Of a DNA stretch of 64,000 nt, positions 4,590-64,000 are shown piece after piece. Both the position numbers and the translations under genes were made by a program. How positions within the stretch are numbered: the first letter of the stretch is position 1; every line of letters begins with the position of its first letter. Source of the DNA: Raillietiella orientalis (lineage: Eukaryota). The stretch spans positions 62,001 to 126,000 of the forward strand of contig JAYWIR010000040.1 of assembly GCA_036172245.1 (NCBI GenBank), given 5' to 3'. The notes below the pieces were generated by a model, which did no database searches, was not told the DNA's origin, and saw only the letters and a program-made list of their open reading frames with translations.

Positions 4590-4803
4590 TGCAGACCTTT
4601 GCGAAGAAATACTCGAGCGCCGATGCCTCGGTGAACCCTGGAAGCAGGAGCAGAAGGTCTTCGGCAGAGGCCGACACGGCAAGCGTGCCGGGACATGAGC
4701 TCGGCAGGGTTGCCAAAGTCTCCCTGTATGCTTTCAGCACCAATTCAAAATAGATGCTGAAGAGCAGCGGGATTAAGCTGTCACCCTGCCTAAATCCTCG
4801 TCG
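4590..4803 (-). pseudogene. Degenerate LINE RT fragment
   Basis: Minus-strand translation RRGFRQGDSLIPLLFSIYFELVLKAYRETL...SAEDLLLL matches the QGD/YADD region of the other copies. Confidence 0.8.
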
Positions 4804-6300
4804 TTTTTCACTCGGATATGTCGGGGCATTTAATTAATCTAATCTTTACAGAATTAGTTAACCAAGTCATTGAACAGTTTGTTGTGGGAAAACACTTGGT
4901 TTTCCCACGCTGACAGTCCGACCACGCTTCTGAGATGCAGAAGTTGCCCAACGGCACGCCAAGGTACCTCAGGTGTGCCGTTGGGCACACCTGAGGCAGA
5001 TGCCCGTGGGGATCCCCAGGCGGGTCCAGTCGGACTGCCCCTCCCACGTCGCTTTCTCCGGAACAACCGCGCACTTGCTCCTGTTGACGCTCACGCCCGC
5101 ACCGCGACGGATCAACTCAAAAGAAATCTTCAAGCGTCGCTGCCGGGGTGGACATGGACAACAGGAGAAGCAAGTCGTCGGCATAGACCGCCACGGCCGG
5201 CGTACCTGGACAGGAAGGAGCTCGGCAGGTTGGCTAGCGTCAGCCTGTAAGCCTCCAGCACCAATTCAAAATAGATGCTGAATAGCAGCGGGCTTAAGCT
5301 ATCGCCCTGCCTAATTCCTCGCCGTACCGGCATGCCGTACACGCGACAGCCACTGAAAACAATGGGTGTAATCGCGTGGCGCCAGCAGGAGCGCAAGTAC
5401 GCCAACAGGGATGCCGGGAAACCCAGACGTTCCAAGAGCTCAAGAAGCTTTTGGTTCACGCAATCGAAAGCTTTCTGCAAATCGACAGCAACCGCCAAGG
5501 CTCCCGGGGTTTCCCATTGCGACACTCGCCTCCGTCTGCGAGAGTTCGACGGCGTCGTTTCCGCTCGACGTTCCACCGCCACACGATGCTGCGATTGCAG
5601 CCATGTGCGGATGAAGAAAAGGTACGCGTTCAAGGACCTCCAGGGAACAGCATAGGTCTGTTCCGGACTTATCAAAGACTCCGCGATCCTCCCCATCCGC
5701 GCCACACAAAGTTTCGAGAACAACTTGACGTCCAAATTCACCAACGTGATCGGACGGCAATTGTTCACTTGGCGCAAATCTCCGCCTTTCGGCCGGAGAC
5801 GCACCTTCGCTTTGCGAAACGAGGCGGGGACATCGCCCGCGTCTCGCATCAACGACGAGAGTTGCAGCACCAGGCAGATGAGCTCCGCCGCAAAGCACTG
5901 GATGAATTCCGCGGAGAGTCCATCCTCGCCTGCCGCTTTTCGTCTCTTGAGCCCCGAGATGTCTGAAAAAGTTTCCTCTGCCGTGAACGGATCATCGAGA
6001 CGCGCGCGTTCCTCCCCGGTTACAACAGGTGCATCAATCGGCAGAAGCAGCTCGGAGACTGCGTTGCGTCGCTGCCTCTGCATACAGCGAAGAGTAATAG
6101 CGCCTGACTATCAGCCGCACGCCGGTTGGAACCGAGCATTCCCGGTCCAGATAGTGGAGCAGAACTGTCGCTCCAGACTGCCAGACCTGGCACAAGGCCT
6201 AGGCCTTGTACTCAATTAATCGACCAACGTCCGCGCCCCTGGAAAAGGAACGAGCCTGCAGAAAATCTCTGCTGTTGGCTACACCGTCGCCGAAGCCCGC
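4804..6300 (-). mobile_element. Tx1-like LINE family I: linker and RT, C-terminal region deleted, with 3' end
   Basis: ORF 5130-6083 contains KAAGEDG, RPITLVN, DLQKAFD and RQGDSLSP; YADD lies in a shifted frame. The 3'-terminal ATTAAA-hairpin variant is at 4804-4833. Confidence 0.88.
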
Positions 6301-6302
6301 AT

Positions 6303-6590
6303 CGAGAGGACGTGTTTTTCCTTCGCTCCGAAAGCGAGCTTGAGTAAGTGTTTTTTTTTTGTGCAGTGTTTGCGATTTTCACATTGCCGGTGTCCGATGG
6401 CTGCGATGCCAGAGGGCCGAATGCCCTAGAGCTGGACCACGAACGATTGGTCCAGGGCCGAGGGGACGACCTCCTTACCCCTGATTTTCAGGGGCGTTCG
6501 CAGCAGGCGCTAGACGAGGGCTGCATCCTTGTAGTGCACCTCCCAATGGCCTACCGCGCTCACTGGCATAAGTGCCAGGACATCGTCCTC
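6303..6590 (+). mobile_element. 5' end (UTR plus degenerate ORF1 start) of a C-like LINE
   Basis: Begins CGAGAGGACGTGTTTTTCCTTCGCTC, like 14534 and 37418, and has GGTGTCCGATGGCTGCGATGCC (MAAMPE) as in family C ORF1. Confidence 0.75.
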
Positions 6591-6960
6591 TCAGACACCT
6601 ACGCGTTCCACCTCGCTCCAGAGCTGGTCGCCCGTCCCTTCCCGGTACGCGACACTGACCATGTAGGCCAGAAGGGGGTTGTAGCCGCTCGCGGCGTACG
6701 CCCGCAGCTCTGCCTCGTCGGGTGGGGCTCCGTGAGCCGCCTCTGCCTTAGCAACGGCGGCAAAACTTCTCGCTGGAGGCGAGCGACGATTGGTGGAGGC
6801 TTCCACTCCTCCCGAAGAAGGTCCTGCGACGCAGGGGGATTCCTCCACCTCCATTTCTGCGGGCACTGGCTTCATTTTCAAATGAAAAATCCCACCACAC
6901 CCAAAAGGAACAACCGCAAAAAAACAACAAAGACGGAGCGCAAGAATGCACGTCCGAACA
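6591..6960 (-). mobile_element. 5' end (UTR plus ORF1 N-terminus) of LINE L (B/F-related)
   Basis: GGACGTG motif at 6955-6949. ORF1 segment RSFAAVA...DEAELRAYAASGYNP resembles family B RSFADVA...DESELRAYVA. Confidence 0.75.
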
Positions 6961-6977
6961 ATGGAGGGGGTCGGCTG

Positions 6978-9961
6978 TTTATCACCGGGTGCGCCGGGGC
7001 GTTTATTAAAAGCTATCCGGGAACAGAGTTCCTGGACAAAGGGGAAAACAAGATAGGAAGGGGGCGGGATCCCCGACACGCAGGTCGGTATGCCGAAAGT
7101 CCGGAACGGATGGGAGGGGACCACAAATAGACTACTATAAAAAATAAAAATAAAAATATGATGGGGAGGGGACAGGGGTCTTTGGTGAGTCCGTTCCTTC
7201 CTTTCAAAACCGGCGATGGATGCGGCGATCTCTCTCCTTACGTCCTGTGGAACATGGGCCCACTCGGCAGCCGACGACATGCTTGCGCTGGCTAATCCGG
7301 TGGGCTGACGAACGATGGCCAGCTTCTCCAACTCTCGGTGGGCCTTGTCGATGGCGCGGGTGCAACACACGGTTGCAACGACAGCACCCAAAGACAGGCC
7401 GCCTGGCGTGAAGAAGCGGCGCATCAAGTCCCTCGCGGTGTCCCCCTAGTGCACGAGAGCTGATGCCAGCCTCCGCCAAAGTCCTAGAAGGGCACCGCAG
7501 TCCAGGAGCAGGTGCGTGAGCGTTTCCACTTCCGCGCACCGCTTACAGTTTGGGGAGACAACTCCCCCGGAAACACGGTTCGTCCGCTGGTTGGAGTGAA
7601 AACCCCAATGCATTAGCATGATGACGTCCTGCTTCCACGAAAGGGGGAACACAGAAGTGTTCAAACAGGTGGGAATGACCACAAGTTCTTCGGGGGGCAC
7701 ACTCAAGTGTTCACTCCACCGAAGCAGTCCCTTCGAGATGTGGCGAGGCGTGGCGGCGTCTGCCAGCTCGCAAGTCCTCCAGCCGCCAATAGGTCGTGTT
7801 GTTCCTGCGATGGTGCAGGCGACCTCCCATCTCGCCGATTCGCAGCTGTCATCTCTTGCCCTGAGGGCTCACAGTGCTTCAGCGAGGGGGGTGAGGGCCA
7901 GGCGATTCCACTTCTCCTGGCTGCTGCAGACCTCATCAACCGTGCAGTACGGGGAGAGGTGAACGCAACGGAGTTCCAGGAGGGAAACATCCTGGTGCTT
8001 TGCCCAGCCTTGCAACGGTTCCTGCCGCCAGGCTTCAAAGTTCGTTGGGCGGCAGGAGATCCATTCCTGGGCTGCCAGGAGCCGGTAGAGCGGCTTCAAA
8101 GGGAAATCGAAACTTGTCGTGGGGCGCTCCGAATGCGGACGCAGCGACAGAAGTCCGTCGCTTCCGGTGCAGCGCCGTAGGAGCAAGCCCGCAGGAGCGT
8201 ACCACGGAGTGGACCAAAGGTTGGCGCACAGGGCCAACATCCGAGGCTGCACCTGCAGCTCGATTCTCTCCAGCGCAGGATGCCTAAGCCAGCATCCCGA
8301 CGCGGAGCCGCCAAGTCTTTCAGGCGGATCCTGGACCTCGCGGGACCCCACAGAGCGTTACTCAACAGGCTGTGCGCCTGGAGCTTGGCCGAGTAGGGGG
8401 GCGGGCAAACAAAAAGCAGGGGGCGCAAGAGGGGCGCAACGAAGGTGTTCCATATCGCGGCCCGCTCCGACAGGAGGAACCTCCCATGCTGGAACGGGCT
8501 CAGCGCACTCGTAGCCTTCCGAAGGCAGTCCGACCACACTTCCACTGGGCTGATGTTCCCCAGCGGAACGCCCAGATATTGAGTGGATGAAGCGGTCGGG
8601 ATCCCCAGGCGGATCCAGTCGGACTGCCCCTCCCACGCCGCACCAATAGGTACGACCACGCTCTTGCTCCTGTTTACGCTCATGCCCTCTCCCCGGCGAA
8701 TCAGCTCGAAGAAATCCTCGAGACTGGACGCCGGGGTGGTCGTGGGTAAAAAGAGAAGCAGGGCGTCAGCATAGGCCGCCACGGACGGCGTTCCTGGACA
8801 AGAGCTCGGCAGGTTGGCCAGGGTCAGCCTGTACGCCCTCAGCACCAACTCAAAGAAGATGCTGAATAGCAACGGGCTTGAGCTGTCGCCCTGCCTGATG
8901 CCCCGCCTCACCGGCACGCCGTACACGTGGCAGCCGCTAAAAGAGATGGAAATGAGCGCGTGGCGCCAGCAAGCGCGCAAATAGGCCACGAGGTGCACCG
9001 GGAGACCGAGGCGTTCCAGGAGCTCCAGCAGGAGATCCTGATTTACGCAATCGAACGCCTTGCGGAGATTGACCGCGACCGCCAAGGCACCCGGCGCTTC
9101 TCCAGGCCAAAAGCAGCGACGCCTAGCCTCGGCAGCCGCAGACGCGGTTGCCTGGCTGTCGTGCGCCACGCAGCGTTGGAGCTTGAGCCACGTGCGCGCT
9201 AAGAACAGGTTCGCCTCCATGGACCGCCCGGGAACAGCGTAAGACTGCTCCGGACTTACCACGGATCCAGCGATCCTGCCCAGGCGCGCGAGACACAGCC
9301 TGGAGAACAACTTGACGTCCGCATTCACCAAGGTGATGGGACGCCAGCTGCTTAAATGGCGCATGTCTCCGCCTTTCGGCAACAGACGCACCCTTGCTGA
9401 GCGAAACGAGGCCGGGACATTGCCCGTCTCTCGCATCAGCGCAGAAAGCCTCAGCACCAGGGGGATGAGTTCCGCCGCGAAGCACTGGAAGAACTCCGCA
9501 GGCAGACCATCCTCACCTGGCGCCTTGCGCTTCTTGAGGCCCGCTATGGCGGAAGACACTTCTTCCGCCGTGAAGGGCAAGTCAAGAGTGGCGCGTTCCT
9601 CCTCGTCGACCGCCGGGGAATCCGCCGGCAGAAGCAGCTCCGAGAGACTGCGTTCCGTCGGCTCCCTAGCGTACAACAAGGAGTAATAGCGCTTTAGGAG
9701 GCGGCGAACTTCGGCCGCGCCCGAGCACTCCAGGCCCTGGTCGTCGAGCAGACAAGCCGCTCCTGACTGCCAGACCTGGCGCTCGGCCTTGGCCTTGTAC
9801 TCCGCAAGGTACCGGACGTCCGGGCATCGGGAGAATTGGCAGGCCTGCAGAAACTCTCTGCTGTTGGCCACGCCTTCCCCGAAGCCACGGGGAAGCTGGC
9901 GCAAGAGGAACCGGCTGCAGAACTCGCAAACCGATCTTTTCAGATCGTCCCAGTCCACGAG
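6978..9961 (-). mobile_element. Tx1-like LINE family F, copy 1 (linker, RT, CCHC, 3' UTR); inactivated
   Basis: RT motifs in ORF 8096-10063 (YADD mutated to YADA) with frameshifts downstream. CKRCAEVETLTHLLLDC present; 3' hairpin at 6978-7007. Paralog of 47858-50842. Confidence 0.92.
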
Positions 9962-10125
9962 CGAGAGCGGACGGGTTTTTGTTTCGCTCTTGAGCGTTTG
10001 TGGTTTTATTTTTTTCTTTTTTTTCTTGGTGTGCCAGTGGATTCGGTGGTGGCTAGGCAGCAATGCCTGGGACCACCACCAATGTTAAGGAGGGGGCGAC
10101 GTCTATGTCGGCAGAGGTGGTCCAG
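9962..10125 (+). mobile_element. 5' end of a D-like LINE (K) inserted antisense into F1
   Basis: CGAGAGCGGACGGGTTTTTGTTTCGCTC 5' motif, T-rich UTR, and an ORF1 start MPGTTT like family D MPDTTT. Confidence 0.7.
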
Positions 10126-11045
10126 TTTATTTTGAGGGGTTGAGTGTACTTTCTTTAGCATGAAAGATTCGATTCAGTCATCATCTTCAGCAATCTATTC
10201 AGGGAAGTTCGGAATACACATGAAAGGTGGGGAGGGGAAGGATTTCGTGACAATTTGGGGAGGGGAGTCACTGTGGGAGGGGAATGGGAGGTGGATTCAT
10301 TTTCCATTTGTTCTTCGGTATCATGGGAGATATGTTGGATATAAATGTTCCGCGACCATCGTATGGCCAACATCGACGATGTATGGGCAATTTGCTTGAC
10401 AGCATGCTTGGATAGTCCAGCCAAGCGAAGAATAGCATCGTTCGAGGGATCGCAAGAACCAAGCGTGCCTACTACAATTGCATCGTTTAACACTTGGAGG
10501 TCTTGGGATTCCAGGAAACGTTGCAGCGGAAGGTATTTCACTTGTTTCCTTTCGCGTGCAGTGTTAAGCGCAGGCAGCCTGTTTTCATACGGAACCACTA
10601 GGTCGAGGATGAGGGCATGAGAAGAGTCACGTAAAAAGAGGTCTGGCCGTAAGGTGGAGTGGGAGTCCGGAATACATCGATCGCTTGAGGACATAGGCCA
10701 AAGGGGGAATAATGTTTCTTTGAGAACCTCCAGAATGGCATTATGCCTCGAGGATATAGATATACCGAGATGAGCGGGACAATGTGAGAGAACATGGGCT
10801 AGTGTTTCCTTAGGATGGGGACATTTTCGGCATTTTCAGTAAATCCAGGCCTTTTCCTATTTCCATTTAATGGTAATTGATTTAATCGTGCGCGGTGAAT
10901 GAACCTCCAATCGGCGAACCGAATCAGCGAATCCTCTTCTAGGAAGCTCATTGATGCCGAATGCTTCATTACGCACTCTATTGATCGTCCTTGGTCGGGT
11001 TTGGAGAGTAGGGATTTGATTTTTTGATCTCTCAATAGAGATCGA
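10126..11045 (-). mobile_element. 3' fragment of an RLE-type non-LTR retrotransposon (NeSL clade, Utopia-like)
   Basis: KPDQGRSIEC and FADWRFIHRARLNQLPLNG; after a frameshift, CRKCPHPKETLAHVLSHC, RHN, RPDLF..LDLVVPYEN..ARERKQVKY (PD-(D/E)xK endonuclease) and IRWSRNIY. Ends at AATAAA (10131-10126). Lower GC than its neighbours. Confidence 0.85.
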
Positions 11046-11046
11046 A

Positions 11047-12125
11047 TTGACTTCGCAATTTTTCTCCTCGATGTCGGGAGTAAAATGCCAGCCCTGTTCT
11101 CCCTCTGCGGTTTCGGGAAGATTTTTCTCCAACGCCGCGCTTGGAGCTTGGGTCATTGGCAGCTTTTCTCGGGCAATTTTCCGGTTTTCCGATTTTTCTT
11201 TCCCCGCGCGTTTCCCTTGCGCCTTTTTGGCGGCCGAGGGAATCGGGGTGGGGCGTTTAGGGCACACACGACGGACGTGTCCCTTCTCCCCGCACAAGTA
11301 GCATACGATGTTTGGGCACCTCTTTCGGATGTGTCCGACCGCATCGCAGTAGCCGCAATACCGTGGCTTGCCCGCATACCAGAGGTCTACCGGTTCTCCC
11401 TCGACCTCAAGTTTGTGGGGAAGCTTCGCATCGTCTTTTAAGGTTACACGTGCCGCGGCGAGGCCCCCGAAGTGTCGTCCGTAGCCCTCAAAGATTGTGG
11501 GCTCAGGGCACAGCGCGTATACGTCCCGTATTTACTTAGCTCTTCTTTGAAGGCAGTGCGCGCCATGCGCTTAGATATTCCTGTCAAATGGACCACTAAC
11601 GAGTGGTCCATTGACACCGGGAAGATCTTACGGCCGTCCATGATCAGCGGGGTATTTATCAGGCGATCGGCTAGGCTGATGCTCTTGCACACCAGCTCAA
11701 CGCGCTGCGCCCCGCTGAGCAAGCACAGACCTTCCAGATCTTCCTCACGGACATTAGCATTTTGAAGCGCTCTGATAAATGAGCGCGCCGTGTTTCCCTC
11801 AAACAAAGGGCCTACCTTGTATACAAGCGATGGCTTGTATTCACAGGCCCGATAGGCGGCTTCCTCGGCCAAGGCCTCCGCACTGGGAGCGACGACCATT
11901 TCGCTCCAAGTCTTCGCCGGCTGCGAAGACGGTCCAGGGACTGTTGCCTTCATAGCTGTAGGTTGTGTGGGAGGACTTGCGTCCCCCACGACTACATCCA
12001 TCGCGGTGTCCTCTGGCACGGCTGCCATCGGACACCGAGGACCCACACTTGACACCTAACTGCACAAACTTCGGCTGCTTCCCAGACAAGCGCTGGCGGA
12101 GCGACCAAAAAACACGTCCACATAC
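11047..12125 (-). mobile_element. 5' part of C-like LINE N (UTR plus gag-like ORF1, frameshifted)
   Basis: GGACGTGTTTTTTGGTCGCTCC at 12119-12098. ORF1 from 12028 (MAAVPEDTAM) is homologous to the 14625 ORF1 and includes the knuckle CGEKGHVRRVCP. Confidence 0.85.
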
Positions 12126-12474
12126 ACCGACTTTCGGCAAAGGACCGCAAGACCGCGGGGGAGTATACGTCACCTACCTTATAAAGGAGGGCCGGGTTGT
12201 AGCCGTCGGCCATATACGCACGCTCTTCCTCTGCAGGGGGCGGCGCAGGCGCCGCCATCACCGGGCTCCAAGCCCTCGCCGGGGCGGGGGACGATTCCGT
12301 GGGAGAGATGGCCCCCACATCCATGGGCTGGGGGGACGAGGCTCGCTCGCCCCCCTCCGCCGTCTTTGCGGAATCCTCAGGCATCTCTGCCCAGGAACAA
12401 CCGCTCAAACCAAAAACACCAAGAACACTCGCGAGAAAAGCGCGAAGCACCACAAAAGCACGTCCGTCCTCTCG
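12126..12474 (-). mobile_element. 5' end of LINE M (UTR plus ORF1 N-terminus)
   Basis: Starts CGAGAGGACGGACGTGCTTTT. ORF1 ARAWSPVMAAP...RAYMADGYNPALLYKVG is homologous to the other ORF1 N-termini. Confidence 0.8.
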
Positions 12475-12489
12475 CGCGCGCCGTGGCGA

Positions 12490-14533
12490 TTCACACCCGG
12501 ATGTGGCGGGGCATTTATTTCAGTGAAATAAAAATACAGGAAATGTCGCGTGGCAAACCCCAATGTTCACCACTCCAAAACAGCTTGCTGGTTGCCGGCT
12601 GCATGCCGGAGAGGTCCTTCCGATGTGCGGGGATGAGAAATAACAAACAAAAAGAAACAAAAAGTTCAAATGTGGGGGGGGAACAAATGTTTTAGGGGTG
12701 GGAGGGCAGGGAAGGGATCACGTTGCGCGTGGGCAGGTCCCCTAGATCCTATCCACGATCCGGACAAGCTCAGTCCTTTCAGAGCCCAAGTGGCGCCACT
12801 TGCAGACACTGCGCGCGAAAAGGCGAGTCCATCGTAAGGCGTTGCCAGTTGGCTGACGTCTTCTTCTGGTGGCGTTCCAAGCCGCCACGATCCCTCGAAT
12901 GCAGCAGAGGATTGCTACAGAAGCGGGGGTGAACAAGGCGTCACTACAGAACAGGCGCCTGAAAACGTCCTTGGGGCCGCATCCGCGCAAGTCCAGGATC
13001 GCCGTAAGGCGATCCCATAAAGGGCGGATGGCACTGCACTCAATGAGAAGGTGGGGGAAGGTCTCTTTTTCCCCGCACCGGTCGCACTGGGGATCCACAG
13101 CCCCCCGGGTGGTGTGATACAGGCGTGCTTTACAGGGTAAACCCCAATGCATTACAAGCAGCGCCACCTCCTGCCATTTAAGGGGGAGGGATCCACTGTT
13201 CCAGGACGCTGGGGGCCACTTCATCTCCTCCGGAGATATTCCGAGTAGCTCGCCCCAGCGTCGAATTCCGTTGGGCGGGACACTCGGTGTCGCAGCGTCC
13301 CCTAGCTGCCGAGATGTCCACGCCTTTATCGGTTGTGTCCTTCCTTTTACGGTGCAGGACACGGTCCATTTCCCCAGCTCCCTACTGTCCCTGGCACTGA
13401 TGAGAAAGGGCAGCACTGGGGCAAGGGGGGTTATCAAAGCCCACATAAGCTTGTCGTGGGACCGCACGATCTCCTGCAGCGCCCAGCGAGCATGCCTTTT
13501 CAGGCAAGTGTTCTTTGTGCCCGCCGGTACGTAGATCTTTCCCCAGATGGAGACTGACTCGTGCAACCAGGCAGAGTAGTTCCCTGGGAGGCAGGAGATC
13601 CAGGCGTTCTCCCGTACCACAACGTCCATGCGACGCAGGAGAAAGCCGCCGTGTGCTTCTCTGCGGTCGCACGCCAGCAGAAAAAACAAAAGTCCTCCGA
13701 ATCCGCAGGCTCGTTGGGCCAGGAGGCGTGCTGGAACGCACCAAGGCGTGTCCCACAATTCGGCCGCGAGGGCGAGAGTCCTGAATCCGAGTTGAAGTTC
13801 CATGCGCTCCAGCGTAAGTACTCCAAATCCTCCGTCCTTACGTGGAGCGCACAAGTCTTTGAGCCTCACACGGGACCTCCCTTCTTTGGCTCGGGACTCA
13901 CCACGGAAGCGGCCACCCGCCCCAAGCTCTCAGCCCACAACTTGGCATACAACTTTGCGTCCGCATTCACTACTGTGATGGGACGCCAGTTGCCAATGTT
14001 GCGTAAGTCTGCTGATTTCGGCAGGAGACGTACTTTTGCTGACCGGAACGAAGCGGGAACTTCGCCGTGTTCGCGGATCAGCGTACTTAACCTGAGCACC
14101 AGGGGGGCCAGCTCTGGCGCGAAGCGATGGTAAAACTCCGCGGGCAGGCCGTCCTCCCCTGGTGCCTTCCGTTTCTTTAGCTTTGCGATGGCGGGGACGA
14201 CCTCCACCATCGTGAACGGTTCTGCCAACCGGAAACGATCCTTCTCCTTGAGCGCGGGAGCACCATCCGGCTGCAGGCGCTGCGCGAAATGGCGCTCCGG
14301 TGTTAGTGGCGCGTACAAGGAGGAATAGAACTCCCGCACGATGCGGCTTACCTGAGCTGGGCTGGAGCGTTCTTGGCCCTGATGGTCCAGCAAGCAGGCC
14401 GAGCCTGACTACCAGGCCTGCCTCTCCGCCTAAGCCTTGAATTCTGCCAGGCGACGAACGTCGGGACGCCTGGAATAACGGCGGGCCTGAAGGTATGCCC
14501 GCTCGTTCCTGACTCCGTCGCCGACTCCCTTGG
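12490..14533 (-). mobile_element. Tx1-like LINE family J, 3' part, RT core deleted
   Basis: ORF 13866-14393 (KAPGEDG, WRPITVVN) is joined at about 13885 directly to ORF 12742-13869 (RLKDLCAPR...CDRCGEKETFPHLLIEC). 3' hairpin variant at 12490-12519. Confidence 0.9.
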
Positions 14534-27197: not shown

Positions 27198-27360
27198 ATA
27201 GTGCTTTCTTTTTGCTTTTTTCTATTTGTCCCTTCCCCCTCCGCTGCCGAGTCGACCTTGGGAGCCTGCGTGCTGCCCACTCGGCGAGTTCAGAAGAACA
27301 TGTTCTGAACACTGTAGGGGCGATAGCCCTACACTTGCTTGTTTATTTTTTTATTAAAGA

Positions 27361-27390
27361 AATAAACGCCCCGGCGCACCCGGGTGTAAA
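27361..27390 (+). promoter_or_regulatory. Conserved LINE 3' terminus: AATAAA plus CCCGG-loop-CCGGG hairpin (representative of 15 copies)
   Basis: AATAAACGCCCCGGCGCACCCGGGTGTAAA; variants mark every Tx1-like 3' end in the window. Confidence 0.85.
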
Positions 27391-47347: not shown

Positions 47348-47857
47348 TCCCAGACCACCATGGAGGAGGGGGATAAGGTGAGTGATTGCCGCCTTCTCCC
47401 AACGGTAGAACCTGTCCAGGAGATAGCCATGGAGGAGGGGGAGCAGACAGTTGACAACCGCTCCCCCCTGCCGTCCAACGCAGCCGACGAATCGGTCCCC
47501 ATGGAAGAGGGGGAGCAGGTGCGTGGAACCCGCCCCCTTCAACCGTTGCGGTCCGCCGAGGAATCGGCCCCCATGGAGGAGGGAGAACCGGTGCGCGGAG
47601 ATCCCGTTCCTCCATCCGTCCCGCCCGACCAGGTGGCGGGAGCCCCATTGCCACTTTCCCTGGAGTAACACCTGGGCTCGCCTGTCGCCGTCGATTACGC
47701 GTGGCTTGCTGGAACGTCAACGGGCTGCGCGACGACAGCAAAAGTCGGGACACGGCCGCCACCCTGCGTGACTTCGACCTGGCACTCCTGCAGGAGATCC
47801 ACGTGATCACCGCGGAGAATGCCCAGGAGATCGAAAGGATCGCAGGGGGACGGTTGA
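47348..47857 (+). mobile_element. C/G-like fragment: ORF1 C-terminus and ORF2 start
   Basis: Four MEEG repeats, TAACA at 47666-47670, then ACWNVNGL..LLQEIH. Confidence 0.85.
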
Positions 47858-55587: not shown

Positions 55588-58500
55588 TTTACACCCGGAT
55601 ACGCCCGGGACGTTTATTGTAAAAACTCTACATCCGCGGTACAAGGCCCCGCTCACGGCCATATGCACTGGACCTGCCGGGACGCAGGGACGCAACCCAG
55701 CGTAGCGTTCGTCAGCAGCGAAGGGGGATGGGGATAAAACAAAAAGAAAAATAAAAAAAATAAACAGACAAAAAGAAGTTGGAGGGCAGGGAAGGGAACA
55801 CTGAACGCTGTGAGGAGGGCCCATCCGTTGAAGGAAGCCCTCGAGGTCCGTCCGTATATTCCCCAGTTAGGGCCATCCGGCAGCTCTCCGCATGAAACGT
55901 TGGGCGTATGGGACGACATCCCTCGCGTGTAAACCCACTCCTTCGTTATTGGCTTCGCTCCATGCCGCCACGATGCCACGGACACAGCACAAGGCTGCGA
56001 TGGCTGCGGCTGGCTGCAGTGCGTCCTTCACGAAGAGGGGCCGAAGAACGTCTCTGGGGGTGCTGCTCGTAGGGAGCCCTAGGGTCGCCCTGAACCGTTC
56101 CCAGAGGGGTCGGATGGCAGCACAGTCCACAATAAGGTGGAAGAGCGATTCCCGCTCTCCGCACCTGACACACTCAGGATCCACAGTTCCCCTTGTCCAG
56201 TGGAAGCGGCGTGCGTTGCAGGGTAATCATCAGTGCAGCAGTAGCAACGCCGACTCTTGCCACTTAAGGGGCAGGATCCTGGATTCCTTTAGTACCGGGG
56301 GCCACTTCAGCACATCCTTCGGGATGGCGAGCAGCTCGCCCCATCTCATTAATCCACGCGGCTGGACGCTCGGGGTCGTGGCGTCCGCGAGTTCTCCTGT
56401 GGTCCAGCCGCTTAACATCTTCTCCCTGCCTGCGATCTGGCAGGTGACTTGCCACCTCGGCTTCTGGCGATCCTAAAGCGTCATCAGGAGATAGGGCATC
56501 GCAGTAGCAAGGGGGGTCGTCAACGCCCACCTGCGACGCCGGGGAAATTCCAGTATTTCCCGCAGGGTGCGGTTGGCGTATGGGCCGATTCGCAGGCAGT
56601 TTATGTGGTTTTCACTTCTCCGGTTCAGCTTAGCACATGTGCCAGCAGACTCCTCCAACCAGGCGGAGGAGTTGGCGGGGCCACAAACCATCCAACCGTT
56701 CGTCTTCGCCAAGGTTGCTATGCGTCCGAGCATAAGGCCGCATCTTCGGATCTTCCGGCCAGGGCACAGAAGAAACGACGCGAGTCCTTCGCATCGGGAC
56801 ACACGCCTGGCGAGGTGGCGGGCCGGAACGCACCAAGGGGTGCTCCACATCTTCGCTGCGATGGCGAGGGTTCGCCACCGCAGCTGGAATTCCACGCGCT
56901 CCAGCGTCAGGAGGCCAAGGCCACCGTCCCGACGCGGAGCGCACAAGTCCTGCAGAGGGACTCGGGGCCTCCCCTTGCCCCAAAGGGCGATGCGGAGGAG
57001 GTCCTTCGTCCTCTTTTTAACTACTCTTGGGGCGGGGCAAACAAAAAGCAAGGGGCGGAGGATGGGGGCCGCGAAGGCGTTCCAAACCGCGGCCCGTTCC
57101 GGCAAGTGAAACTTGCCTTCCAGGAACGGGCCGATCGCCGGCTCAACTTTTTGAAGACAGCTGGACCACGCTTCCGCAGGGGAGTAGTCACCCAACGGCA
57201 CACCAAGGTACTTGAGGCACCTCGCCGTGGGGATCCCCAGACGGACCCAGTCCTGCTGCCCTGCCCACGCCGCACCTACTGGCACCACCGACGACTTCGC
57301 CCTGTTGACCTGCAGTCCGGTCCCACGGCTGAGCAGATCGAAGAAGTCTCCGACCGCATTCGCCGGGGTGGACATAGGTAACAGAAGCAGAAGGTCGTCG
57401 GCCTAGGCTGCTACGGCGGGCGTGCCGGGACACGAGCTCGGCAAGGAGGCCAAAGTCACCCTGTAGGCTCTCAGCACCAACTCCCTGCCTGATGCCCCGC
57501 CGCACCGGCACGCCATGCACCTTCTGACTGCTGAAAGAGACGGAAATGATGGCATGGCGCCAGCAGGAGCGCAGGTAGTTGATCAGGGAGGGTGGGAAGC
57601 CCATGCGAACCAGGAGCTCCAACAAAAGCCCCTGGTCAACACAGTCGGACGCCTTATGGAGATCGACTGCGAGCGCTAAGGCCCCCTTCCCCGCCCGGGA
57701 GTCCATTCCCTGCCCTGCTGGCGGCCCCAAAGTGGGGTTGCCGATTTTTCCTTTCCCTTCCTTTTGACACCTCTGCGCGTGCATCCATGTGCTCGCGAAG
57801 AAGAGGTTGGCATCCATACTTCGCCCGGGAACAGCATATGTCTGCTCCGGACTAATAATGGAGTCTGCCACCTGCCCCAGACGCGAAGCCCATAGCCCGG
57901 CAACCAACTTGCCGTCCGTATTCACAATCGTGATCGGACGCCAGTTGTTCAAATTCCTAAGGTCTCCCCCTTTCGGAAGGAGCCTCACTCTGGCTGACCG
58001 AAACGAGGCGGGAACATCGCCTTCGTCTCGGATCAGCCTTGTCAGCTGAAGCAGCAGGGGTGCCAGCTCTTCCGCGAAGCTCTGATAGAACTCCGCGGGC
58101 AAGCCGTCTTCCTCTGGAGCTTTCCGCCTCTTGAGCCTTTTGATACCGGCGAGAATTTCGCCGGTGGTAAAAGGCTCATCGAGGCTTAACGACTCCTCCT
58201 CCTCTATTGCCGGGGCACCATCCGGAAGCAAGAGCCGAGAGGCATCTTGATCCGGGGGCGCCCTGGCGTAAAGGGAGGAATAATAACTCCGCACGAGATG
58301 CCGTACCGACGCCGGGGACGAACATTCCCGGCCCTGGTCGTCCAGCAAGCTGACCGACCCGGATTGCCAGGCTTGGCGTTTGGCCCCGGCGCGGTACTCG
58401 GCCAGGCGACGGACATTAGGGGTTCGCTCGTACATTCGGGCCTGTAAATAGGCCGAATGGTTGCGAGGACCCTCGCCGAATAAGGAGGGCAGGCGGTCCA

Positions 58501-58896
58501 GGGGGAACTGCTCGCAGAATTCCCGGACCGATTCCTTAAAAAGGTCCCAGTCTTGGAGATTCCGGAGCGTGACGCCTCTCAGGTATTCGCGAAGGTGTTC
58601 CTTCGCACCTGAGAGTCGCGTCCAGTCCCCCGGCAGACGCCAGTCTCTGGATGGCGGTCCTTTGTCGCGAGGCCGCATCTCGAAAATTAACCGGGAATGG
58701 TCCGACAACGTTGACGCAACTTTCCCCCGTTTGCCGACCCGGGAACACAGGTCAGCGTCGAGGAAGACGTGGTCGATGCTGCGGACCATTCCCCTCTCAC
58801 CCGCGAACAAGTTGCGCGCACGCATGGCGGCGCACAACTCGTTCATCGCGTTCACGTGTGTTTCCGGCTCACCTGTTAGCAGGCGGAGATTGAAAT
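55588..58896 (-). mobile_element. Family C copy 3 (APE C-terminus to 3' end; no D or G insertion)
   Basis: ORFs 57188-58903 and 56473-57375; small deletion at about 57482; stop in the YADD tyrosine codon; hairpin at 55588-55618. Confidence 0.9.
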
Positions 58897-59209
58897 TTAT
58901 CACCCGGTCACGCCGGGGCGTTTTTTAATAATAATAAACTGGTCAGGGACAATGTCCCCAACCAACAGAACGACAGAGAACATAGAAAAATTACAGGCAC
59001 GCAGGCCTGGTAAACAAACCGTTCGCAGCGTGGGGGGAATGAGGGGAAACAAACAAAAATCAAAAACTGTAGGGAAGGGTAACGGGTTTTTGGTTAGGCT
59101 CCGTACTCACGGGGATTTATACGATGAGCACCTAAAATGTTCCGGAGCCTATGGGGACACGGGTGTAAAAAGAAAATACAAATTTAGTTTATGGAGGGTA
59201 GGGCAATGA

Positions 59210-62200
59210 TCACCGGGTTGGCCGCTGATGAGGGTGTGTAAACCGGCGGTGTATTGCGGCGAGATTCCTCTTTGTCTCCTCTGTCAAATGAGGCCATCTA
59301 GCGGATGCTCCCATGTAGAAGGATGCTTTGCTGATTACCTCTTGGTTCTGTCCGTTGATTACCAACGCCTGGCGGACGGAAACTATCGCGCGTATGCAAC
59401 CGATGGTTGCAATCCTTGCGCTTAGTAAAAGCCCGCTCGGCGTGAAGAATCGTCGCAGCAAGTCTCTTGCGGTGTCCACGGGATGCAATAGTGCTGTTGC
59501 CAGCCTACGCCACAGTCCTTGTAGGACACCGCAGTCCAATAGTAGGTGCGGAATCGACTCCGTCCATCCGCACCGAACGCAGATCGCAGACGCAAATCCC
59601 CCGGAGTCACGATGCCAACGCTCGTTGCACTGAAAACCCCAGTGAACGAAGAGCAGCACGGCTTGTTTCCAAGCAAGGGGGAGCAGCGAACTGTCCATAC
59701 ACTGTGGAGGGACTACAAGTTCTTCGGGGGTGACAGCAAGTTCTTCTGCCCACCGGAGGAGTCCCTTTGCAGTAACACGAGGAGTGGCGGCGTCCGCCAA
59801 CTCACTTGTCTTCCAGGTGCCAATGAGTTTGGTTCTTCCCTCTATCGTGCAGGAAACCTCCCACCTCGCCGGTTGGTAACTGTCGTTTCTTGCCCTGAGG
59901 GCAGACAGCGCTGCGGCAAGAGGCGTGGCAGCCAGGGTAGAAAACTTCACCTCGTCCTGCAGTACTTCTTGAGAGGATCGTAAAAAAAATTGGCGCAGGG
60001 GGCGAAGATCTTCAGGGCGTATTCCTTGGAACGCCGCCCAGGATTCAACAGACTCCTGCCGCCAAGCTTCAAAGTTCATTAGGCGGCAGGAGATCCAAGA
60101 GTGTGCTTCCAGAAGTGCGGTCAACTGCCGCAATGGAAAACCGAAACCCCGCTTCCTGTATTGAGTGCCCGGCAAAAGCGAGAGAAATCCTCCGCTGCCG
60201 GCGCATCTCCGCAGGAGAATGCGAGCTGGCACACACAGAGGGGATGTCCATAGCTGGGCACACAGTGCCAGCAGTCGGAACTGCACCTGCAGTCCGATTC
60301 GCTCCATTGTCAGGATACCCAAACCAGCATCCCGACGCGGAGCTGACAAATCTTTAAGGCGGATCCTGGATCTCGCCGGACCCCAGAGAGCGTTCCTAAG
60401 CAGGCGCTTAGCCCGCTGTTTTGCCGCATAGGGGGGGTCCAAAACAAAAAACAGGGGACGGAGGAGGGGGGCCACAAAGGTGTTCCAAATAGTCGCCCGT
60501 TCCTGCAAGGTAAACTTGCCGTTAAAGAACGGGCTGATGGCCAACTCTGCTTTCTGAAGACAGTCCGCCCACGCTTCGGTTGCGCCGAAAGCGCCCAACG
60601 GAACGCCAAGGTACTTAAAGTACCCGCCCGTGGGGATCCCCAGGCGGATCCAGTCGGACTGCCCCTCCCACGACGTACCCACAGGAACGACCACGCTCTT
60701 CTCTCTGTTCACGCTGACGCCCGCTCCCCGACGAATCAGGTCGAAGAAATCCTCGACACTTGACGCCGGGGTGGACACGGGGATCACAAGAAGCAGGTCT
60801 TCAGCGTAGGCGGCCACGGCAGGCGTTCCCGGGCAGGAGCTTGGCAAGTGAGACAGCGTCAGCCTGTATGCTCTTAGCACCAACTCAAAGAAGATGCTGA
60901 AGAGCAACGGGCTTAAGCTGTCGCCCTGTCGGATGCCCCTACGAACGGGAATACTATACACGCGGCAGCCGCTAAAAGTGATGCAGGTTAGCGCGTGGCG
61001 CCAGCACGCGCGCAAATACAGCAGGAGTTGCGCCGCGAACCGAAGGCGTTCCATAAGCTCCAAAAGCAGCTTCTGGTTTACGCAGTCGAACGCCTTGTGG
61101 AGATCGACCGCGACCGCCAAGGCACCTGGCGTTCCCTCCTGCCGTCGGCGCCTGTTCTTTTTGCCTGCGACAGTGACTTTCGCAGCAGCCTGGCTTTGCT
61201 GCGCCACAACTTCCTGCAGCTGCATCCATGTACGCGCGAAAAGGATGTTCGCCTCCATGGATCGTCCCGGAACCGCGTAGGTTTGTTCCGGGCTCACCAC
61301 AGATTCCGCGTTTCTTCCTAACCGCGCGACCCACAGCTTGGAAAACAACTTGACGTCCGAGTTCACCAAGGTGATCGGACGCCAGTTGTTAAGTTGGCGC
61401 AAGTCTCCGCCTTTCGGCAGGAGACGCACCTTCGCTGAGCGGAAGGAATCTGGGACATTCCCGGATTCACTCATCAGCGTCGCGAGTTTAAGCATCAAGG
61501 GAATGAGCTCCACTGCAAAGCACTGATAAAACTCTGCAGGGAGCCCATCCTCGCCTGGCGCCTTTCGTCTCTTCAGCCCAGCGATGGCGGACGAAAATTC
61601 ATCCGCCGTGAAGGGCTCGTCGAGACGTTCGCTTTCCTCCTCGCCGACAACACGAGCATCCTGAGACAGGAGTATCTCAGAAAGAATATCCTCCGTCGGG
61701 GATTCCGCGTAGAGCGAGGAGTAGTAGCGTCTCACAATGCGGCGTACTTCGGCTGGGGCCGAACATTCCTGGCCCTTGTCGTTTAACAGGCATGCTGCTC
61801 CGGACTGCCAGACCTGGCGCTCGGCCCTCGCCTTGTACTCTGCGAGACGCCCGACATCCGCGCGTCTCGTAAACGTGCGAGCCTGCAGAAAGTCTCTACT
61901 GTTGGCCACGCCCTCTCCGAAACCGCGTGGAAGCCGGTGCAAGGGGAATTGGCAACAGAACTCGCGGACAGATCTTTTGAGATCGTCCCAGTCCGCAAGT
62001 TCTTGAATGGCAAAGCCCCGGAGGAATCCACGTAGATGCTCCGCAGCCTCCGGTTGGCTAAGCCAATCCGCCTGCATCCTCCAGCTTTGCAACGGAGGCA
62101 CCCTGCCTGGCGGAAGAATCTCAAACTCCAACCTGTGGTGGTCAGAAAGCTCAGTCAACAATCTTCCTCTCCTACCCACACGCGAATGCAGGTTTTCATC

Positions 62201-62803
62201 GAGGAAAACGTGATCGAGCGATCTTTCCATTCCAGGATCGCTGACCATCAAGTTGGCGGCGTGCACGGACGCGCACATCTCGATGGGCAGCGCGCGCTCC
62301 CTCGGGCGGCTCCAATCGTCGGAGAGCAGGCGGACGTTGAAGTTTTTAGCGACGAGGTGCGCCACTTGGAAGCCGGAGTTGTTGAGCCACTGGCTCTGCA
62401 CCTCACCAAAGAAAGCTACTCTTTCTTCGAGGTAGCGAGAGCCACTCGGCGCGTAGACGTTTGTAACGACGAGATCGATGGACTCGGACCACTTGATGAC
62501 AAGCTGGCCTATCCGTCCGTTGTCATCGAAACGAACACTACGCACCGCTTTCGCCATTTTTCCTCTTACGAGGAACGCGACGCCGCACGTGTGTGCGCCG
62601 CCGCACCGCCAATGTAGCGTTCCGCCTGCGCGCTCCTCGATTTCGGCTGCCTGGTCGTCGGAGATTACGTGAATCTCCTGCAGCAGCGCGAGGTCGAAGG
62701 GGCGCAGGGCGTTGGCTACTAATCGCCTCTTCTCGTCGTTCTGCAGTCCGTTCACGTTCCAACACGTTACGGACAGACGACGAGAAGACGCGATTCCCCG
62801 CAT
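59210..62803 (-). CDS. Non-LTR retrotransposon ORF2, 1197 aa (APE + RT + CCHC); open but with catalytic substitutions
   Basis: CWNVNGL, LLQEIH, NVYAP, SLDH, LSDH, KAPGEDG, WRPITL, KAFD, RQGDSLSP, YLG and CVRCGWTESIPHLLLDC present. GDFN is KNFN and YADD is YAED. Confidence 0.93.
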   Translation of the reverse strand: MRGIASSRRLSVTCWNVNGLQNDEKRRLVANALRPFDLALLQEIHVISDDQAAEIEERAGGTLHWRCGGAHTCGVAFLVRGKMAKAVRSVRFDDNGRIGQLVIKWSESIDLVVTNVYAPSGSRYLEERVAFFGEVQSQWLNNSGFQVAHLVAKNFNVRLLSDDWSRPRERALPIEMCASVHAANLMVSDPGMERSLDHVFLDENLHSRVGRRGRLLTELSDHHRLEFEILPPGRVPPLQSWRMQADWLSQPEAAEHLRGFLRGFAIQELADWDDLKRSVREFCCQFPLHRLPRGFGEGVANSRDFLQARTFTRRADVGRLAEYKARAERQVWQSGAACLLNDKGQECSAPAEVRRIVRRYYSSLYAESPTEDILSEILLSQDARVVGEEESERLDEPFTADEFSSAIAGLKRRKAPGEDGLPAEFYQCFAVELIPLMLKLATLMSESGNVPDSFRSAKVRLLPKGGDLRQLNNWRPITLVNSDVKLFSKLWVARLGRNAESVVSPEQTYAVPGRSMEANILFARTWMQLQEVVAQQSQAAAKVTVAGKKNRRRRQEGTPGALAVAVDLHKAFDCVNQKLLLELMERLRFAAQLLLYLRACWRHALTCITFSGCRVYSIPVRRGIRQGDSLSPLLFSIFFELVLRAYRLTLSHLPSSCPGTPAVAAYAEDLLLVIPVSTPASSVEDFFDLIRRGAGVSVNREKSVVVPVGTSWEGQSDWIRLGIPTGGYFKYLGVPLGAFGATEAWADCLQKAELAISPFFNGKFTLQERATIWNTFVAPLLRPLFFVLDPPYAAKQRAKRLLRNALWGPARSRIRLKDLSAPRRDAGLGILTMERIGLQVQFRLLALCAQLWTSPLCVPARILLRRCAGSGGFLSLLPGTQYRKRGFGFPLRQLTALLEAHSWISCRLMNFEAWRQESVESWAAFQGIRPEDLRPLRQFFLRSSQEVLQDEVKFSTLAATPLAAALSALRARNDSYQPARWEVSCTIEGRTKLIGTWKTSELADAATPRVTAKGLLRWAEELAVTPEELVVPPQCMDSSLLPLAWKQAVLLFVHWGFQCNERWHRDSGGFASAICVRCGWTESIPHLLLDCGVLQGLWRRLATALLHPVDTARDLLRRFFTPSGLLLSARIATIGCIRAIVSVRQALVINGQNQEVISKASFYMGASARWPHLTEETKRNLAAIHRRFTHPHQRPTR

Positions 62804-64000
62804 TACTGCTGGGAAGGTGGCGGCTTTTTGCTCGCTTTATCCGGCGAGCAGACGGCGAGCAGCACGACTGGCTGGAGGGGACGGTCGCCACCGTCCTCTG
62901 TCGTGCTGCATGCATGTAATGCCTCCACGCCAGGCTTAACCCCGTTGGGTTTCGTGGAGACTTCGCGTTGCTTCGCGGCGAGCGTTACCTGGCTGCCTAC
63001 TTTTGATCGGCGCGCACACGCTTTCGAACGAGTTGTCCTCGTCTCGGTGATCGGAACGGCATCCATTTCGGAGTCCGACCGGCGCATGTTCGATCGGGTT
63101 TCGGCCTTCCGCGAAGCAGTGACAGGTTCTGCGGGATTGACAGCTGTCCTGTTTTCGTTTTCCGTCACCAGAGCATCGCTTTTGGTGACGGCTGCTTTCC
63201 CGGCGCGCGCGTTTTCAGCGTGCTCACGCGCACTTGCACGAGGGACCTTTCCTGAAGTCTTCTTTAGTTCATTACGGTTCCTCACTTCGCGTGGCGCCGT
63301 AAATGGAGATTGTGCTCCATGGCCATCTTTGAAGCCATCCGCGTCTTTGGACGGGAGCACTTTCGATGGCTCCGACACGCTCGTCATGGACGCTGCTTTC
63401 GGAAGGGCTTTTAATCCCTTCGTTGGCATGGCATCCGCGCCAGTCGAGAGCTTGCTCTCCGACTGCGACGGCGTGAGATTTTTCTCCGCTTTCGCGGTGT
63501 TGGATCGCGACGCGGATTTTTTTTTGCCGACTTTCGGAGTCGACACGGCACAACCCTTCTTACCCGATTTGGGCTTCTCAGCCACTGCAGGAGGTGAGGG
63601 AATGGATCTGACGTTACTGGAACTGTCCTTACCGCCGTTGTCCATTGGCGTCCCCGCCGGTTGCTCGAACTCCGAGTGAGCCGGGCGTGCTTGGGAAGGA
63701 CATCGATTGCGCCTAGGGGGACTCACCATTGCCCCGGATTCCCCGCACCCTTTCTTTTGCGGCTTCCCTGCCGCGAGAGGGGGCGCGCAGGCCTTCGCAT
63801 GCGAGGTTTCCTGCTGCTTTGGGGCGACATTCCGCTTCGCGTTTTTACGGAATTTCTGCCGTGGGGTCTCCAGGTTTTTCGCAGAGTTTTTCTTTATATC
63901 CGCGCTTTGTTTCTTAAGATGGAGCTCCGCGGCTGCCTTTTTTCGCAAAAGATCCGGGCAATTTTTCAAGTGGTGCCCGGATAGTTTGCAATAACGGCAT
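62803..64000 (-). CDS. ORF1 C-terminal part (family B), partial
   Basis: Open from the second knuckle (CRYCKLSGHHLKNC) to PSQQ-TAA, which overlaps the ORF2 ATG. Confidence 0.85.
   Translation of the reverse strand, partial: CRYCKLSGHHLKNCPDLLRKKAAAELHLKKQSADIKKNSAKNLETPRQKFRKNAKRNVAPKQQETSHAKACAPPLAAGKPQKKGCGESGAMVSPPRRNRCPSQARPAHSEFEQPAGTPMDNGGKDSSSNVRSIPSPPAVAEKPKSGKKGCAVSTPKVGKKKSASRSNTAKAEKNLTPSQSESKLSTGADAMPTKGLKALPKAASMTSVSEPSKVLPSKDADGFKDGHGAQSPFTAPREVRNRNELKKTSGKVPRASAREHAENARAGKAAVTKSDALVTENENRTAVNPAEPVTASRKAETRSNMRRSDSEMDAVPITETRTTRSKACARRSKVGSQVTLAAKQREVSTKPNGVKPGVEALHACSTTEDGGDRPLQPVVLLAVCSPDKASKKPPPSQQ

Follow-up and report, generated by a model that had tools for sequence, protein, structure and literature searches.

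Nested clusters consisting only of LINEs form centromere DNA in several green algae, and the locus described here bears on the way in which a LINE might come to restrict its insertions to related copies. In Coccomyxa, Zepp clusters are described as nested, 1.5 to 42 kb in length, at 61% GC against 53% for the genome, and present once per chromosome (PMC3446292), and the same literature takes them as centromere markers (PMC3446292; 10.1101/2024.02.27.582245). ZeppL-1 of Chlamydomonas and its relatives is likewise reported as one CENH3-bound cluster per chromosome, with recent mobility within the clusters and occasional insertion outside them (PMC8226300; 10.1101/2025.03.28.645958). In Drosophila, islands of non-LTR retroelements (G2/Jockey-3) are reported to serve as centromere cores (PMC6516634). 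Two further reports concern how LINE copies become joined: R2 proteins are described as template-jumping onto further 3′ UTR RNAs, which yields head-to-tail copies (PMC11371274), and R1-type double insertions are described as keeping the target site inside the junction, with most junctions running from a tail to an internal position (PMC5932611).

We analyzed a stretch of 64,000 nucleotides (the window), most of which had been described in a sequence-only reading as ∼60 kb of related LINEs with no LTR element, DNA transposon, or satellite. This description held. LINE protein homology covered 90% of positions 4590 to 64,000, and LINE protein homology plus DNA repeats within the window covered 96%, versus 9% of the flank (1–4589). 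Of the 37 ORFs that were 250 aa or longer, 18 carried Pfam domains, all of them RVT_1, Exo_endo_phos, zf-RVT, or CCHC knuckles; of the 129 ORFs of 130 to 249 aa, 5 gave matches, only to zf-CCHC or Exo_endo_phos. In neither set did Pfam detect an integrase, transposase, RNase H, or gag. Across the window, TRF returned no satellite arrays, Rfam no RNA matches, and ARAGORN no tRNA genes. The sharp GC boundary that had been placed near 4250 was present as a step at 4200 to 4250 (from 0.34–0.35 at 3800–4199 up to 0.53–0.56 from 4200), but it did not coincide with the edge of the LINEs, whose homology begins only at ∼4603. GC is ∼60% in the island versus 46% in the flank, of which 4.6 kb is visible, on one side of the island only. 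The flank consists of a low-GC part (1–4250; 46% GC overall) with no recognizable gene, in which an ORF at 566 to 1348 on the minus strand had no homolog, and a GC-rich stretch (4251–4602) with neither LINE homology nor repeats.

Nine RT copies in the window gave HSPs of 250 aa or more, and these formed a single clade relative to 12 outside proteins (support 100/100, stem 2.05). Defining a family by RT DNA identity below ∼86% to other families, we counted about nine (A, E, H (S4X), S7, D, F, B4, G, and B), in agreement with the eight to ten related families proposed earlier; the accompanying claim of a single LINE lineage is correct for this clade, but an R2-type fragment of ∼1.1 kb is also there. 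Exo_endo_phos and RVT_1 occurred together in one 1208-aa ORF and also in the other families, and the best solved relative was human L1 ORF2p (E = 3e-45), with R2 far weaker. These matches support assigning the lineage to the L1 group, and to that extent the earlier label of Tx1/L1-like LINEs stands, with an N-terminal AP-type endonuclease preceding RT in ORF2. ORF1 is separate, 366 to 498 aa long, and has zf-CCHC; after the RT, zf-RVT matched at 27.3, 21.6, and 21.4 bits, each below the 27.5 cut-off. The predicted element plan is an ORF1 with CCHC knuckles and an ORF2 with an AP-type endonuclease, an RT, and a putative C-terminal zinc motif. All 15 3′ ends carry AATAAA and a GC-hairpin motif followed by 4 to 6 nt (the motif matched 23 times in the window, 15 of them at element 3′ ends), and none of the 15 has the poly(A) or A run typical of L1 proper.

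The nearest public proteins outside the lineage were at most 40% identical, and no chlorophyte protein was among 72 word-based matches. Up to seven different contigs of run X1 covered single places of the window, so further copies exist. Many island copies are old and broken. No autonomous element could be demonstrated in the window: stops or frameshifts interrupt D, E, F, G, and A2, and A3 has an open ORF2 (1208 aa, 59,210–62,836) in which the endonuclease GDFN motif reads KNFN.

The left part of the window begins with an insertion outside the island. D′ (3330–3729, minus strand) is a 5′-truncated, 400-bp copy of the D family, 98% identical to D, that lies in the non-LINE DNA of the low-GC flank between perfect 10-bp target site duplications (TSDs; 3320–3329 and 3730–3739). 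At the island edge, an RT fragment (T0; 4603–4803, minus strand; ORF2 aa ∼632–698) is the target of S4X (4804–6956, minus strand), an internally deleted copy with a complete 5′ head, the beginning of ORF1, RT, and a degenerate 3′ motif. Between the S4 head and the tail of S5 is a patch (6957–6977, minus strand) of 13 to 21 nt resembling antisense endonuclease-coding sequence. S5 itself (6978–9962, minus strand) is an E-family copy, 94% identical to E, extending from ORF2 aa ∼280 to the 3′ end, and its interior adjoins a short plus-strand LINE 5′ head fragment with a T-rich leader (9963–10,045). The R2-type (RLE) fragment follows (∼10,155–11,150, minus strand); it is lower in GC and is the only transposable element (TE) piece outside the L1 group in the window. 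Pfam gave no match to it, and phmmer matched it to the C-terminal 165 residues of three R2 proteins (E = 9e-10 to 7e-7); by its matches to R2 proteins in the PDB, its part at 10,155 to 10,835 contains the C-terminal CCHC and PD-(D/E)xK restriction-like endonuclease. S6 (11,150–12,488, minus strand) is a B-like 5′ head plus an ORF1 with CCHC knuckles, and its head is directly adjoined by the tail of S7 (12,489–14,518, minus strand), an ORF2 with an internal deletion whose interior adjoins the B1 head.

The remainder of the island is dominated by nested copies. A full-length B forms the B1 composite (14,519–37,402, plus strand) and contains three direct insertions. A1 (16,754–20,900, plus strand) entered B at the GDxN codons of its endonuclease region and has an internal deletion of 1.76 kb at 19,589/19,590. 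F1 (21,241–32,256, minus strand) is full-length, antisense in B1, and split by D (21,899–27,392, plus strand), a full-length element of 5494 bp with an ORF1 of 473 aa and one frameshift in ORF2 near 24,213 to 24,312. G (32,927–36,724, minus strand) lies antisense at the VN.D.K codons of the B1 RT; its ORF2 has one in-frame stop, and B aa ∼498 to 1054 are absent on its 5′ side. The head of B2 (37,403–45,881, plus strand; the B 5′ part, with A2 at 39,636–45,541) adjoins the B1 tail without a spacer, and F2 (45,882–47,347, minus strand), the 3′ part of F, follows. P (47,392–47,857, plus strand) is B-like, runs from the end of ORF1 to endonuclease aa ∼85, and is cut by E (47,858–52,446, minus strand), whose ORF2 has one stop and one frameshift and whose upstream 750 bp has no homolog in the window. 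G2 (52,447–53,743, plus strand) is a 1.3-kb 3′ part of G. B4 (53,744–55,586, minus strand) belongs to an F-like family (80% identical to F, 70–72% to B), extends from the end of ORF1 to ORF2 aa ∼498, and contains G but neither A nor F. B3 (55,587–58,892, minus strand), the B 3′ part, contains A and has no interruption at the positions of F and G, which makes it the empty-site reference for both, and A3 (58,893–64,000, minus strand) runs off the window end.

Elements of this lineage entered earlier kin by target-primed reverse transcription, leaving TSDs of 5 to 17 bp and 5′ truncations. The nesting that had been noted from the letters was borne out in three cases by TSDs and empty sites: D in F1 has 10-bp TSDs (21,889–21,898 and 27,393–27,402) and an empty site in F2 at ∼46,532, F in B1/B2 has 17-bp TSDs (21,224–21,240 and 32,257–32,273) and is absent from B3, and A in B has a TSD, its empty-site reference being the related G family only. 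TSDs of 10, 10, and 17 bp with empty sites, together with the truncated copies D′, S5, and G2, mark this process. Composite blocks were later duplicated, inverted, and deleted. Positions 14,519 to 21,894 match 37,403 to 46,536 at 93%, 40,438 to 45,879 match the reverse of 58,556 to 64,000 at 96%, and three copies share the same A-in-B junction. For 60% of the island, the window contains a second copy with an identity of 88% or more. Block duplication has thus multiplied a few insertion events, and independent nesting events are far fewer than visible nestings.

After collapsing block duplicates, 12 independent 3′ ends remained, of which 11 adjoin LINE sequence; the other lies ∼0.9 kb beyond the island and adjoins non-LINE DNA. 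Of the eight complete 5′ heads, three adjoin the 3′ terminus of another element in the same orientation without a TSD-sized spacer (S7/S6, S5/S4, and B1/B2). The youngest copy pairs, D/D′ (98%) and G/G2 (99.4% over 1294 bp), both lie inside the window. Although the targets B1 and B4 are only 72% identical, the G-B1 and G2-B4 junctions fall at the same nucleotide in the same orientation, this being one of the 12 homologous RT sites that the window contains. At G, the final 13 nt of the B1 flank are of the B4/F type (one mismatch) and not the B3 type (four mismatches), a patch with p ∼0.01 that was picked post hoc. In the E family, the tails of both E and S5 run into the same antisense endonuclease position of kin coding sequence, a flank of hundreds of bp beside E and of only 13 to 21 nt beside S5. 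Same-site reuse was confined to G and E, with n = 2 for each. The D family occupies two unrelated target sites with clean TSDs, one of them non-LINE, so it inserts without obligate sequence specificity, and no motif shared among the A, F, D, and E targets was seen at the window junctions. The idea of a self-targeting LINE niche therefore survived in part: the locus is lineage-restricted, 11 of 12 3′ ends adjoin LINE sequence, and the sole other TE is the R2-type fragment, but self-targeting by sequence is not general, given the two D sites, and site reuse speaks for it in G and E only.

These data support a lineage-restricted LINE niche. We consider it probable that the locus is a retrotransposon island made by one radiating L1-group LINE lineage whose insertion is directed to kin or to a chromosomal domain. 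The lineage would then be steered to its own kin or to that domain and not merely survive there. Direction could be partly mechanistic, with transcripts extending ∼13 to 20 nt beyond the element end and taking flank sequence along; in family G, the carried flank may prime at the homologous site of another copy, and template jumping or nick reuse might link tails to complete heads. The sequence-only reading had suggested a centromere, a heterochromatin island, or a dual-strand small-RNA cluster; that the domain is centromeric or pericentromeric, by analogy with Zepp and ZeppL clusters, is possible but doubtful. We regard as quite unlikely the most far-reaching proposal, in which priming guided by homology lets the lineage construct and maintain a chromosomal domain of its own, and the window holds a self-perpetuating, multi-family, LINE-only island, a possible centromere, in a host outside the taxa known for Zepp-like centromeres. 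Under that proposal, transcript tails taken from antisense RT, from antisense endonuclease, or from the head of an adjoining element would anneal at homologous kin sites, which would explain both nested insertions at one and the same nucleotide and the seamless joining of tails to heads between families.

The island could instead be a passive graveyard, a tract with little recombination or without genes that lets every insertion persist, the LINEs themselves showing no preference for where they insert. The old and broken copies, the unrelated R2-type fragment, and D′, which demonstrates that non-LINE DNA can be a target, are consistent with such retention. However, a graveyard should gather every TE class, whereas the 166 ORFs gave LINE domains only and one clade fills 96% of the island, and neither tail-to-head joins nor same-nucleotide reuse by G and E is expected from retention alone. 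The 3′-end context, the joins, and the site reuse favor kin- or region-directed insertion over this explanation, which we consider unlikely. It is improbable that recombination and not transposition made the island, with a few insertions into one B multiplied by tandem and inverted segmental duplication. The large matching blocks, the 60% of the island in copies at least 88% identical, and the common A-in-B junction fit such an amplified seed, but collapsing duplicates still leaves ∼9 families and no fewer than 12 independent 3′ ends, and the different inserts of B3 and B4 mean that a single duplication tree fails to explain the copies. Strict Tx1-like specificity, in which each family's endonuclease recognizes one defined sequence inside kin elements, could account for the two G copies at a single RT codon and the two E copies at a single antisense endonuclease position; the two unrelated D targets, the differing A, F, and B3 targets, and the short S5 flank, more easily explained as a carried tail than as a genuine target, make it very improbable. 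An assembly artefact, with repeats mis-joined or collapsed, is scarcely credible even though the region is highly repetitive and run X1 consists of contigs only, since just two repeat pairs reach 98% identity, both short (0.4 and 1.3 kb; others 89–97%), junctions have TSDs and matching empty sites, and a 3755-bp run X1 contig starts 31 nt before the A 5′ junction and continues into A, this contig not being independent support because run X1 may be the source sample.

Directed insertion into kin or domain remains our preferred reading. The island combines many families living side by side, clean junctions for which empty sites exist, reuse of one site in targets that have diverged, and short patches of carried flank. 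From these features a specific mechanism for kin-directed insertion can be proposed and tested, in which read-through tails would prime by homology, with template jumping in addition. Should the families turn out to occupy a single cluster on each chromosome, the island would be a multi-family equivalent of Zepp from a lineage scarcely represented in public protein sets; dispersed families would make it an ordinary repeat island.

Among known systems, Tx1-type LINEs resemble the island elements in having endonuclease and RT, in their CCHC motifs, and in an ability to lie within other repeats, and G and E each reuse one site; D, A, and F differ in having no shared target. Drosophila centromere islands contain several TE classes. 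They are alike in being islands of non-LTR retroelements, but simple satellites are reported to flank them, and TRF found none in the window. ZeppL-1 clusters share L1-group LINEs, recent copies in the cluster, and, as described, occasional insertion outside, but have one to two families per species, in host genomes that are GC-rich throughout. Tandem dimers of R1 and other non-LTR elements, and R2 template jumping, likewise give LINE tail-to-head joins as described (PMC5932611; PMC11371274); the three joins of the island differ in that each runs from a tail to a complete head, without a TSD-sized spacer, and between different families. The L1-group Zepp clusters of Coccomyxa subellipsoidea and Chlorella are alike in their nested LINEs over tens of kb, in GC above the surroundings (61% versus 53% there, ∼60% versus 46% here), and, according to these reports, in having few or no other repeats (PMC3446292; 10.1101/2024.02.27.582245). 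The island elements have a conserved hairpin motif at their ends and no poly(A), and the likeness described here is one of organization; Zepp clusters are described as essentially single-family (10.1101/2024.02.27.582245), whereas ∼9 families occupy one island here.

The island, by which we mean the LINE-filled part at 4590-64000, belongs almost wholly to one LINE lineage, as the sequence-only reading had claimed for about 60 kb of the window. LINE protein homology covers 90% of it, and homology together with intra-window repeats covers 96%, versus 9% of 1-4589. A Pfam scan of six-frame ORFs gave matches for 18 of the 37 that reach 250 aa, the domains being RVT_1, Exo_endo_phos, zf-RVT and CCHC knuckles and nothing else; among 129 ORFs of 130-249 aa five matched, to zf-CCHC or Exo_endo_phos only. 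TRF, Rfam and ARAGORN found no tandem repeats, Rfam RNAs or tRNA-type genes in the window. The 4.2-kb flank has 46% GC and a CpG o/e of 0.81, and from ~4200 to the window end GC is ~58-60% and CpG o/e ~1.0, a near-unity ratio which argues against a vertebrate-type, CpG-depleted genome. The GC boundary proposed near 4250 holds as a compositional step (from ~4200) but not as the edge of the LINEs, whose homology begins ~350 bp later; the GC-rich ~350 bp in between (4251-4602) have no match elsewhere in the window or among LINE proteins. The flank also carries a 260-aa open frame at 566-1348(-) (53% GC, CpG o/e 0.68), for which Pfam, a word search and Atlas gave no family, homolog or neighbor, respectively. 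Contigs of one DNA sequencing run (contigs only, word share 0.12; possibly the source sample, so not independent), when compared with window positions 1-20000, gave diverged family copies and partial cover of the flank.

The sequence-only reading had seen roughly 8-10 related families, and we counted ~9, with inter-family identities of ~50-75% in ORF2 and 65-86% in the RT region at the DNA level. In a tree with 12 outside proteins, the nine RT copies that were long enough for alignment group as a single clade (support 100/100) with a stem of 2.05 changes per site; three window RT copies with HSPs <250 aa are omitted. The closest solved structure to the 1208-aa ORF2 at 59210-62836(-) is human L1 ORF2p (E 3e-45), with R2 proteins far weaker. 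Among 1.84 billion representatives searched, the members of the lineage were two fragments: one of 619 aa, with 56% identity to family A and 74% to family D (tblastn), and one of 106 aa, with 76% identity to the family E endonuclease. The next match was at 36%, and among the matches listed no other exceeded 40%. An Atlas search with ORF2 returned generic LINE clusters only, and a metagenome scan returned six loci at 24-44% identity and no near relative.

Full-length copies are ~5.5-5.9 kb long (D, 5494 bp) and encode an ORF1 of 366-498 aa with CCHC knuckles, followed by ORF2. The upstream part of E contains a 280-aa Ala/Arg/Pro/Lys-rich frame (51694-52446(-)) with no CCHC knuckle and no similarity to ORF1 of the other families. 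Eight 5' heads from different families (16754, 21899, 32256(-), 14519, 37403, 6956(-), 12488(-) and 9963) have in common a GGACGTG-like motif and, after it, a leader rich in T that contains CGCTCT-like and GGTGTGG-like words, which together may represent a promoter or initiator. All 3' ends have AATAAA, a conserved, GC-rich stem-loop with a 5-bp stem, and 4-6 nt more, and none has an A run. Of 23 motif matches, 15 mark such ends of elements and the remaining eight are internal or due to chance. The 3' hairpin is conserved rather than covarying: RNAalifold, run on an alignment with a shortened A sequence, gave just a 4-bp stem. A common 5' truncation of two copies (X and S7) at aa 302 was discarded, as that residue is merely the onset of sequence conservation.

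None of the copies in the window can be shown to be autonomous. Copy A3 has the only fully open ORF2 (1208 aa), and at ~62336-62350(-) four adjacent G-to-A changes turn its endonuclease motif from AGDFN to AKNFN; GDFN is kept in A1 and A2. Comparison of the three A copies showed no mutation bias of RIP or deaminase type. Reading frames are broken by in-frame stops in E, F and G, by one frameshift in D and by frameshifts in A2. Relative to A2 (42471 to 44232), A1 is without 1.76 kb of ORF2 at 19589/19590, a point which a contig of the sequencing run reads through without the deletion. In families D, F, G and B, the GDxN codons of the endonuclease lie between the arms of a long near-perfect inverted repeat (24016-24075(+), 30029-30088(-), 36223-36282(-)), weak in A, E and B4, whose RNA folds at -33 to -42 kcal/mol (z -6.4 to -9.6). 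One compensatory pair distinguishes G from D/F; covariation of the hairpin was not significant, the observed score being reached in 47 of 500 shuffles.

The nesting is real. Copy F1 is split by D (21899-27392) with 10-bp duplications, and its sister F2 is intact there; B1 is split by F1 (21241-32256, minus) with 17-bp duplications bearing two mismatches between them, and B3 is intact there. A interrupts B at the GDxN codons of the endonuclease region and is flanked by a 5-9-bp duplication, the empty-site reference being the related G family only; the site falls inside the loop of the inverted repeat. A 400-bp 5'-truncated D copy in the low-GC flank is 98% identical to D and has a perfect 10-bp duplication. 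Composite segments were also copied within the island: 14519-21894 matches 37403-46536 (93%), 40438-45879 matches the reverse of 58556-64000 (96%), and 32269-34223 matches the reverse of 52447-54401 (90%), so that the A-in-B junction is present three times and F-in-B twice. Copies with at least 88% identity to another part of the window make up 60% of the island. B3 contains A and lacks F and G, B4 contains G and lacks A and F, and a single duplication tree does not account for the copies.

After collapsing block duplicates, we had 12 independent 3' ends, of which five adjoin antisense LINE coding sequence, three sense LINE sequence, three the complete same-orientation head of another element, and one non-LINE DNA ~0.9 kb outside the island. 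We saw no target motif common to the D, A, F and B3 sites, and therefore no general sequence specificity; the proposed self-targeting niche is supported insofar as 11 of 12 ends adjoin LINE sequence, but not as a general specificity for a target sequence.

The junctions have two non-random features. One is that in each of two families, G and E, two copies are joined at a single position. Copies G and G2 share 99.4% identity over 1294 bp, as against 72% over 662 bp for their targets B1 and B4, and both junctions are antisense and fall on the identical nucleotide within the conserved VN.D.K codons of the RT; the window has 12 homologous RT sites, two occupied and ten empty. The B1 flank ends in 13 nt (GCCAAGTCGATAG) that have one mismatch to the B4/F type and four to the B3 type, and the preceding 48 nt are B3-like; four mismatches in 13 at 7% B1-B3 divergence have p ~0.01, for a stretch picked after the data were seen. 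In family E, the tails of both copies run into one and the same antisense endonuclease position, and this sequence goes on for hundreds of bp next to E itself but for only 13-21 nt next to the second copy, S5. Transcripts might sometimes terminate 13-20 nt beyond the element (30-50 nt downstream of AATAAA); such read-through would take neighboring flank along, and the carried flank could prime at the homologous site in a kin copy. These three steps would provide the simplest single explanation. Alternatively, the cause would be non-allelic recombination or conversion, which requires the exchange to have fallen within ~20 nt of the junction, where no long identity exists.

The other non-random feature is that three of the eight complete heads adjoin another element's 3' terminus without a spacer of target-site-duplication size: S7/S6 at 12488/12489, B1/B2 at 37402/37403, and S5 with its 13-21-nt patch followed by S4 at 6956-6978. 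In double insertion at one site, as the cited account describes it, target sequence is expected within the junction and joins are mostly tail-to-internal (PMC5932611). R2 proteins are described as template-jumping from finished cDNA onto further 3' UTR RNA, which yields head-to-tail copies (PMC11371274), and by analogy template jumping would suit the three joins better than double insertion.

We favor insertion directed to kin or to the domain, with block duplication afterwards, because there is a single foreign TE piece, because of the junction features, and because both youngest pairs lie within 64 kb. It is unlikely that the island is a passive graveyard in which insertions were merely retained, since a graveyard would gather every TE class and the sole foreign piece here is a ~1.1-kb R2-type LINE fragment. 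This fragment (10155-10835(-), extending to ~11150) has a CCHC motif and a restriction-like endonuclease domain, resembles solved R2 proteins (E 9e-10), and gave no Pfam match and no public protein match, including among longer proteins. Its GC is lower (~51%), and its neighbors are a piece of ORF1 on one side and a copy of family E on the other; an A-rich run at ~10010-10045(-), considered as its poly(A) tail, belongs at least in part to a plus-strand LINE head, as the T-rich leader of that head.

The island has close parallels in green algae. Zepp clusters of Coccomyxa are reported as nested, 1.5-42 kb long, with 61% GC versus 53% for the genome, and one per chromosome (PMC3446292), a close likeness to the island, of which the window shows one flank. 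The likeness extends to the ZeppL clusters of Chlamydomonas, reported to be CENH3-bound (PMC8226300; 10.1101/2025.03.28.645958). By analogy the island might be centromeric. Unlike Zepp and ZeppL clusters, which the cited description presents as single-element in composition (10.1101/2024.02.27.582245), this island combines about nine families, and its elements are without poly(A).
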